Assembly: GCF_018350175.1 (NCBI RefSeq)
Contig: NC_058373.1
Span: 4,836,001-4,900,000 of the forward strand
DNA length: 64,000 nt
Reading direction: 5' to 3'
From: Felis catus
Taxonomy: Eukaryota
Positions within the stretch are counted from its first letter, which is position 1. Each line of letters opens with the position of its first letter. The translations under genes were made by a program, and so were the position numbers. Positions 63,410 to 64,000 of the stretch are shown piece by piece. The notes below the pieces were generated by a model, which was not told the DNA's origin, did no database searches, and saw nothing but the letters and a program-made list of their open reading frames with translations.

Positions 63410-64000
63410 TTAGAGCCTCTCGCCCACATGGGTTCTCCGATGCGCGCTAAAATGCGAACTGTTGTTAAATCGCCTCCCACAGGCACCGCATTCGTAGGGC
63501 TTCTCTCCCGTGTGGGTCCTCTGGTGTATGATGAGACTTGAGCTCTGATTAAAGCTCTTCCCACATTCGCCACACTTGTAGGGCCTCTCTCCAGTGTGAA
63601 TTCGCCGGTGGGTAATGAGGTTCGAGCGGTCACTGAAACTTTTGCCACACTCGAGACACTCATAGGGCTTCTCTCCTGTGTGGATCCTCTGGTGGCTGGT
63701 GAGCGTGGAACTCTTACTGAACTTCTTCCCGCACTCAGGGCACTGGTAGGGCTTTTCGCCAGTGTGCGTTCGCCAGTGCGCACTGAAGTGCGAGCTATTG
63801 GTGAAACTCTTTCCACACTCACTGCACTTGTGGGGTTTCTCTCCTGTGTGGACTCTCTGGTGCATCAGGAGGCTGGAGCTCTGGTTGAAGCTTTTCCAGC
63901 AGTCTCCACATTTATAGGGCTTTTCTCCAGTGTGCGTTCTCTGGTGTGCTGTGAGGTTAGAATGATCACTGAAGCCTTTCCCACATTCGGGGCATTTGTA
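63410..64000 (-). CDS. C-terminal 7 C2H2 fingers of a zinc-finger protein, ZSCAN20/ZSCAN29-like; 5' part is outside the window
   Basis: Open frame from the window edge: [28 protein letters not shown]...[28 protein letters not shown]; canonical TGEKP linkers; no stops or frameshifts in 196 codons. Confidence 0.93.

Follow-up and report, generated by a model that had tools for sequence, protein, structure and literature searches.

The 196 codons at the right edge of a 64-kb stretch of cat DNA (the window, C15:4836001-4900000; C15 coordinates are used beyond its right edge) are part of the last exon of an unbroken gene encoding a SCAN domain, two Myb/SANT domains and a C2H2 zinc finger array. 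Sequence comparison makes it highly probable that this gene, referred to here as the finger gene, is a fourth paralogue beside ZSCAN20, ZSCAN29 and ZKSCAN2, is orthologous to primate SCAND2P, and encodes a predicted sequence-specific transcription factor. The protein is already known to the extent that RefSeq predicts it, under conflicting names, and no publication naming an intact SCAND2P orthologue was found in full-text searches covering the main text of openly accessible papers.

Within the window, the minus strand carries a single stop-free frame of 196 codons at 63410-64000 (numbered from 64000 down to 63410), and a six-frame pattern scan of the entire 64 kb placed all seven C2H2 matches in this frame, at a spacing of 84 nt. 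Both the frame and its seven canonical fingers had been proposed from the window alone, and the recognition helices agree with those listed in that original prediction. The right edge of the window splits the exon (exon 8), leaving outside it one more canonical finger (helix RSSHLVC) and one finger (QSSHLAV) that is dead owing to a Cys to Tyr change; the whole array thus comprises eight canonical fingers and one dead finger. Three features at this end of the gene fall within the window:

63410-64000, minus strand: 3' part of exon 8, with fingers 3-9 (seven canonical C2H2 fingers) and a TAA stop, defined by frame and pattern scan
61968-61973, minus strand: candidate poly(A) signal, the first AATAAA on this strand past the stop and about 1.4 kb downstream of it
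53328-53759, minus strand: alternative last exon of the 812-aa cat RefSeq isoform, in which the finger exon is skipped (144/144 residues identical)

Finger-skipping isoforms of 811-812 aa are also annotated for cheetah. The alternative last exon ends about 2.6 kb from the stop of WDR73, an arrangement reminiscent of the overlap between human SCAND2P and WDR73.

The complete gene model has eight coding exons (1008 codons, 3027 nt, one terminal stop) that span 8.2 kb of the minus strand (C15:4907560-4899410), and all seven of its introns are GT-AG:

C15:4907162-4907560, minus strand: exon 1, ATG and SCAN domain
C15:4906320-4906404, minus strand: exon 2, linker
C15:4905688-4905764, minus strand: exon 3, linker
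C15:4904883-4905006, minus strand: exon 4, degenerate KRAB-A
C15:4903640-4904407, minus strand: exon 5, Myb 1
C15:4902788-4903240, minus strand: exon 6, Myb 2
C15:4901987-4902085, minus strand: exon 7, which we take to be KRAB-B-like by resemblance
C15:4900431 (5' start), minus strand: exon 8, the finger exon
about C15:4908001-4909000: CpG island just upstream of exon 1

The intact frame and canonical splice sites of this model agree with the RefSeq felid models. The original prediction had allowed that upstream exons might prove disrupted, and had proposed looking for a SCAN exon past the window edge; the upstream exons are stop-free, and exon 1 supplies a SCAN domain matching that of primate SCAND2P proteins. 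Pfam places this domain (PF02023, 142.6 bits) at C15:4907177-4907440 and recovers two tandem Myb/SANT-like PF13837 domains (77 and 76 bits) as well as eight fingers in the C-terminal tandem C2H2 array, which sits in one exon. A complete KRAB-A box was not found in cat exon 4, where the match covers profile positions 1-18 of 42 and scores 19.5 bits, below the Pfam cut-off of 20.4; opossum exon 4 scores 30.7 bits over positions 1-34. The 1008-aa lynx RefSeq isoform aligns with the cat model gap-free and colinearly, with 17 substitutions, and the first 668 residues of the model are identical to a cat RefSeq isoform; at nine sites the cat residue is unlike both lynx and a second felid.

Only the start of exon 2 required a choice. 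In cat the long form of this exon carries an in-frame TAA and only shorter acceptors stay in frame; acceptors upstream of the TAA were dropped, as they bring in a stop or shift the frame. Two other stop-free, in-frame acceptors exist 24 and 33 nt upstream of the one adopted, which was chosen because RefSeq felid models use it. This short acceptor is annotated also in dog, horse, seal and whales, and models of marsupials, dog, seal and dolphin include the longer form as coding sequence. A remnant of the longer ancestral exon, including the in-frame TAA, is visible in intron 1 of the cat gene at C15:4906405-4906509 (L025:7205-7309). The exon 7 acceptor (L025:2885-2891) is a tandem GAG/TAG, which would explain why felid isoforms of 1008 and 1009 aa differ by one extra Val.

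Comparison with mammalian proteins, as foreseen in the original prediction, identified a consistent set of orthologues but no consistent name for them. Among the best 120 of 357 matches to exon 5, full-length felid (98% identity), canid (71%), equid (72%) and marsupial (60-64%) proteins rank above ZSCAN20, but RefSeq calls them, in four conflicting ways, ZSCAN20-like, ZSCAN29, ZSCAN2 or ZSCAN32-like. The hyena model lies outside these best 120, and the placentals missing from them are weak evidence of absence; the finger exon alone was uninformative against longer proteins, being swamped by long generic arrays. All eight marsupials aligned have nine intact fingers. Judged by these models, the gene is older than originally supposed, and it is marsupials that have the most complete copy.

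The dead first finger of the cat protein, its decayed KRAB-A, the TAA within the longer exon 2 and the annotated finger-skipping isoform could indicate a SCAND2P orthologue that is already non-functional or under relaxed selection, its frame simply not yet hit; its hyena, seal and canid counterparts are also broken or drifting, and a gene lost in many lineages may face weak selection. We nevertheless consider such a state unlikely, given the pattern of sequence conservation. Fingers 2-9 of cat are 91-92% identical to those of opossum and wallaby, closer than to those of dog (86%) or horse (87%); the linkers of cat are 39-51% identical to those of the same two marsupials. At contact positions -1, 2, 3 and 6, cat and jaguar equal opossum at 32/32 sites, dog, dingo and fox at 30 and horse at 28, and lineage-specific changes across 218 finger sites number 10 in cat, 20 in dog and 16 in horse. 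Seven felids have full-length models of 1008-1009 aa, in which domains vary less than linkers (17/478 vs 41/530 sites; Fisher p=0.004); this count leaves out an 822-aa felid model with a single fused Myb (P0143), the puma model (986 aa, with an aberrant segment), the split lion models, the partial jaguarundi model and one complete model (P0249). Finally, in a neutral-decay simulation under our own rate assumptions, 0-3 of 400 frames stayed intact at 0.02 substitutions/site, and 0 of 400 at 0.05. These comparisons argue for purifying constraint on the gene at the protein level.

The two Myb exons of this gene are nearly identical to one another. Across 188 core bases, cat exons 5 and 6, which lie 957 nt apart, show only 2 differences, compared with 18 for ZSCAN20 of cat over this span, and within each species both Myb copies carry common private residues. 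Because the copies are so alike and their private residues are common to both, gene conversion between them is suggested. In single-Myb models, seen in hyena, gray whale, southern elephant seal and one felid, the 5' end bears the signature of copy 1 and the 3' end that of copy 2. A deletion through recombination of the repeats would account for such models, and assembly collapse or an error of gene prediction is another possible source.

A search of the cat genome with PF13837 gave 15 matches, among them a pair at each of four SCAN loci: the finger gene, C17, C15:59.9 Mb and C41. (Three other Myb/SANT matches of this search lie within 16 kb at C11:159801257-159816803, on a contig with no SCAN match.) The C17 locus is ZSCAN20, with ten fingers and helices as in proteins of that name; C15:59.9 Mb holds ZSCAN29, with six fingers as in wombat ZSCAN29; and the six-finger gene on C41, close to platypus ZKSCAN2, is ZKSCAN2. 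In a tree of Myb domains, the ten that belong to the orthologues of cat, dog, horse, opossum and wallaby cluster apart from the rest (96/93). Because the true ZSCAN20, ZSCAN29 and ZKSCAN2 sit elsewhere in the cat genome, the finger gene is, on this sequence evidence, a fourth paralogue beside them. The original prediction had noted fingers typical of ZSCAN20 and ZSCAN29 and yet favoured a different gene, and the distinction holds: both are found at other cat loci, fall into separate tree groups and have other finger counts.

ZSCAN20 is nevertheless the closest relative in several respects. Like the finger gene, it combines a SCAN domain, two PF13837 Myb/SANT domains and a C2H2 array, and its last three helices (DRSNLIT, QSSSLII, NSSHFSA) are identical to those of the finger gene. 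Its Atlas cluster is the nearest by features (and may be the finger protein's own cluster), and the lynx protein matches only ZSCAN20/29 clusters in the Atlas. Unlike the finger gene, ZSCAN20 has ten fingers, occupies its own locus on C17 and groups separately in both SCAN and Myb trees; among the best 120 of 357 matches, its identity to exon 5 is mostly 40-58%, compared with 60-72% for canid, equid and marsupial orthologues, and full-length ZSCAN20 models are present in many mammals. ZSCAN29 and ZKSCAN2 also have SCAN, tandem Myb and finger domains in the same order and have a QSSS-NSSH finger pair in common with the finger gene, but differ in their six fingers, other helices, other loci and separate tree groups.

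In PMC9392472, ZSCAN20 is listed as a putative Harbinger-transposon Myb-derived gene. PMC3706607 describes a marsupial and monotreme 'ZSCAN20-like' gene, a SANT-bearing relative of ZSCAN20 reported there as absent from placentals; unlike the finger gene, it sits in tandem with ZSCAN20. Among the matches listed, a further SCAN-Myb-finger paralogue with WRSH-type fingers occurs only in marsupials and monotremes (P0131-P0145), and this group is probably the 'ZSCAN20-like' gene of that paper, where a SANT-bearing opossum 'ZSCAN2' is also mentioned that may be the finger gene under a wrong name.

A zinc-finger origin for SCAND2 was reportedly proposed by Dupuy et al. in 2002. When the SCAN exon of donkey was used as a query, short RefSeq proteins named SCAND2P mostly ranked above other SCAN families; they come from seals, a bat, whales, lemur, owl monkey, colobines, macaques, gibbon and orangutan, and the human SCAND2P protein is not among the 120 matches listed. 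Conversely, all three primate SCAND2P proteins searched against the cat genome rank the SCAN exon of the finger gene first, at 74-77% identity: 205 vs 134 bits for the best and next locus with gibbon, 207 vs 131 with macaque and 196.5 vs 135 with lemur. In SCAN trees, SCAND2P-named proteins fall into a single group with the genes of cat, donkey and marsupials (97/92 and 99/96), with marsupials outside placentals; the trees are midpoint-rooted only, and the 99/96 tree includes dingo and omits lynx, rhino, owl monkey and the cat paralogues.

The remains of downstream exons point to the same locus. Five of ten primate models (three gibbon, lemur and owl monkey) have tails beyond the SCAN domain that match cat exon 4 or exon 7/intron 7, one of the three gibbon matches being weak (E=0.019); the gibbon tail matches intron 7 (E=7e-6) and the lemur tail exon 4 (E=1.8e-4) in genome-wide searches of cat. 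A lemur tail match to positions 52259-52333 of the window (E=0.013) was discarded, as this part of the tail matches several other places in the genome. Two of the ten tails match EGLN1, and three match nothing clear. The EGLN1 tails, of the orangutan and macaque models, align with the beginning of EGLN1 on cat C22 and have no match at the cat finger-gene locus. They correspond to an insertion described for human SCAND2 in the GENCODE text (PMC3491395), which reports an EGLN1 processed pseudogene there and classes SCAND2 as a duplicated pseudogene. Unlike the intact cat gene, the primate SCAND2P models are SCAN-only, with stops or frameshifts, and those of orangutan and macaque run on into EGLN1-derived sequence. 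PMC10049278 states that human SCAND2P overlaps WDR73 and neighbours ZSCAN2.

Given the genome-wide first rank of the SCAN exon and the tail matches to exons 4 and 7 and intron 7, SCAND2P is very likely a broken orthologue of the cat gene, the link to human running via other primates and the papers cited. This sustains the core of the original prediction, an intact counterpart of SCAND2P, with matches in both the SCAN and the downstream exons. The GENCODE label would instead make SCAND2P a duplicated pseudogene and the cat gene a separate duplicate or a misplaced copy of ZSCAN20 or ZSCAN29, as the RefSeq names of felid proteins (ZSCAN20-like, ZSCAN29, ZSCAN2) and the three helices equal to those of ZSCAN20 might also imply. 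We regard this as very improbable, in view of a single best cat locus that leads by 61-76 bits, the exon and intron remnants in primate models, the same neighbours, the position of marsupials outside placentals in the tree, and the presence of ZSCAN20 and ZSCAN29 at other loci.

The probable orthology of the finger gene and SCAND2P is accompanied by a corresponding position. In cat the gene is flanked by WDR73 and a separate 14-finger ZSCAN2-like gene, in the same orientation as SCAND2P, where the human strands, the human order (WDR73 - SCAND2P - ZSCAN2) and the name ZSCAN2 are as we assume them to be. Its neighbours are:

50422-50697 (window), plus strand: last WDR73 coding exon in an open frame, the convergent neighbour (PDB WDR73 match, E=1e-36)
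C15:4917118-4918668, minus strand: 14-finger exon of the ZSCAN2-like gene
C15:4934424-4934618, minus strand: SCAN exon match of the ZSCAN2-like gene

The convergence with WDR73 that was originally proposed is borne out, the stop codons of the two genes lying about 12.7 kb apart. The ZSCAN2-like neighbour, which ends 9.6 kb upstream of the finger gene, has a divergent SCAN domain, 14 fingers and no Myb match, features that we take to be those of ZSCAN2, and its C-terminus is nearly the one presumed for ZSCAN2 in the original prediction; a separate ZSCAN2 beyond the window was among its expectations, as was the finger gene not being ZSCAN2. RefSeq does call the jaguar, horse and dunnart orthologues ZSCAN2, and the ZSCAN2-like array is the second-best genome match of the finger exon (67%), but with this neighbour as ZSCAN2 the idea that the exon is simply ZSCAN2 is refuted, and we give it almost no credence. 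Further out than the ZSCAN2-like gene lies an intact 12-finger exon (C15:4977514-4978821, plus strand; L019:1514-2821), whose C-terminus resembles that of ZNF774, a gene presumably not adjacent in human.

Outside cat, breaks were read from annotated protein models. Truncated primate models are those of lemur, owl monkey, macaque, colobus, gibbon and orangutan; the lemur model has a frame shift inside exon 4, and one gibbon model stops in exon 4. In harbour and Weddell seals the model extends only five codons into exon 5, a wolf model on the ancestral splice path is out of frame in exon 5, and canid models of 944-982 aa omit exon 3 and translate exon 4 in a different frame. Truncated or broken models are also found in hyena, gray whale, sperm whale, bat, panda and peccary, and horse, donkey and zebra have full-length models that lack a zinc ligand in fingers 1 and 2. 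The original proposal of a factor kept in carnivores and lost in humans therefore needs revision: it stands for felids, where the gene is intact, but not for seals, hyena or the long canid models, and loss is not confined to humans, with all primate models from lemur to orangutan truncated and whale, bat and seal models broken too. Going by the models of six primates, loss would be primate-wide or repeated across primates, and because lesions differ between lineages, several losses are suggested. The lemur and owl monkey models have no EGLN1 tail, so the EGLN1 retrocopy may have been inserted after the gene was already broken.

From what is known of these domain families, the eight fingers would recognise a single, unvarying DNA motif, the SCAN domain would dimerise the protein with itself or with other SCAN factors, and the two Myb/SANT domains would add contacts to DNA or partners. 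SCAN hetero-oligomers are described in PMC10049278. The degenerate KRAB probably would not recruit TRIM28, an activity that is unlikely in cat because the KRAB-A remnant is without its C-terminal half. Since contact residues are unchanged since the marsupial-placental split, stable host regulatory targets would be expected rather than a fast-changing transposon. The gene is apparently broken in several placental lineages and, because the last three helices are equal, may have become dispensable through an overlap of sites with ZSCAN20. In the orangutan and macaque models, the surviving SCAN exon is followed by one derived from EGLN1.

A broader scenario, which we offer tentatively and with more doubt than conviction, would join these elements: a therian transcription factor, its contacts frozen since the marsupial-placental split, would have disappeared in separate events from primates, whales, bats, seals and hyenas and, among sampled placentals, remain near-unchanged only in cats. 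Losses would have been aided by recombination between Myb exons and redundancy with ZSCAN20, and human SCAND2P would be a unitary pseudogene, its SCAN exon now a finger-less partner for SCAN factors.

The cat gene offers the likely structure of the gene from which human SCAND2P came, and argues for reclassifying SCAND2P from a duplicated to a unitary pseudogene. It represents an old, strongly conserved predicted transcription factor, hidden in databases under the names ZSCAN2, 20, 29 and 32-like. Since the gene persists in cats and marsupials but is represented by broken models in several placental lineages, its motif and targets are directly measurable, and the finding raises the questions of which regulatory functions are gone from primates and whether ZSCAN20 takes over the gene's role.
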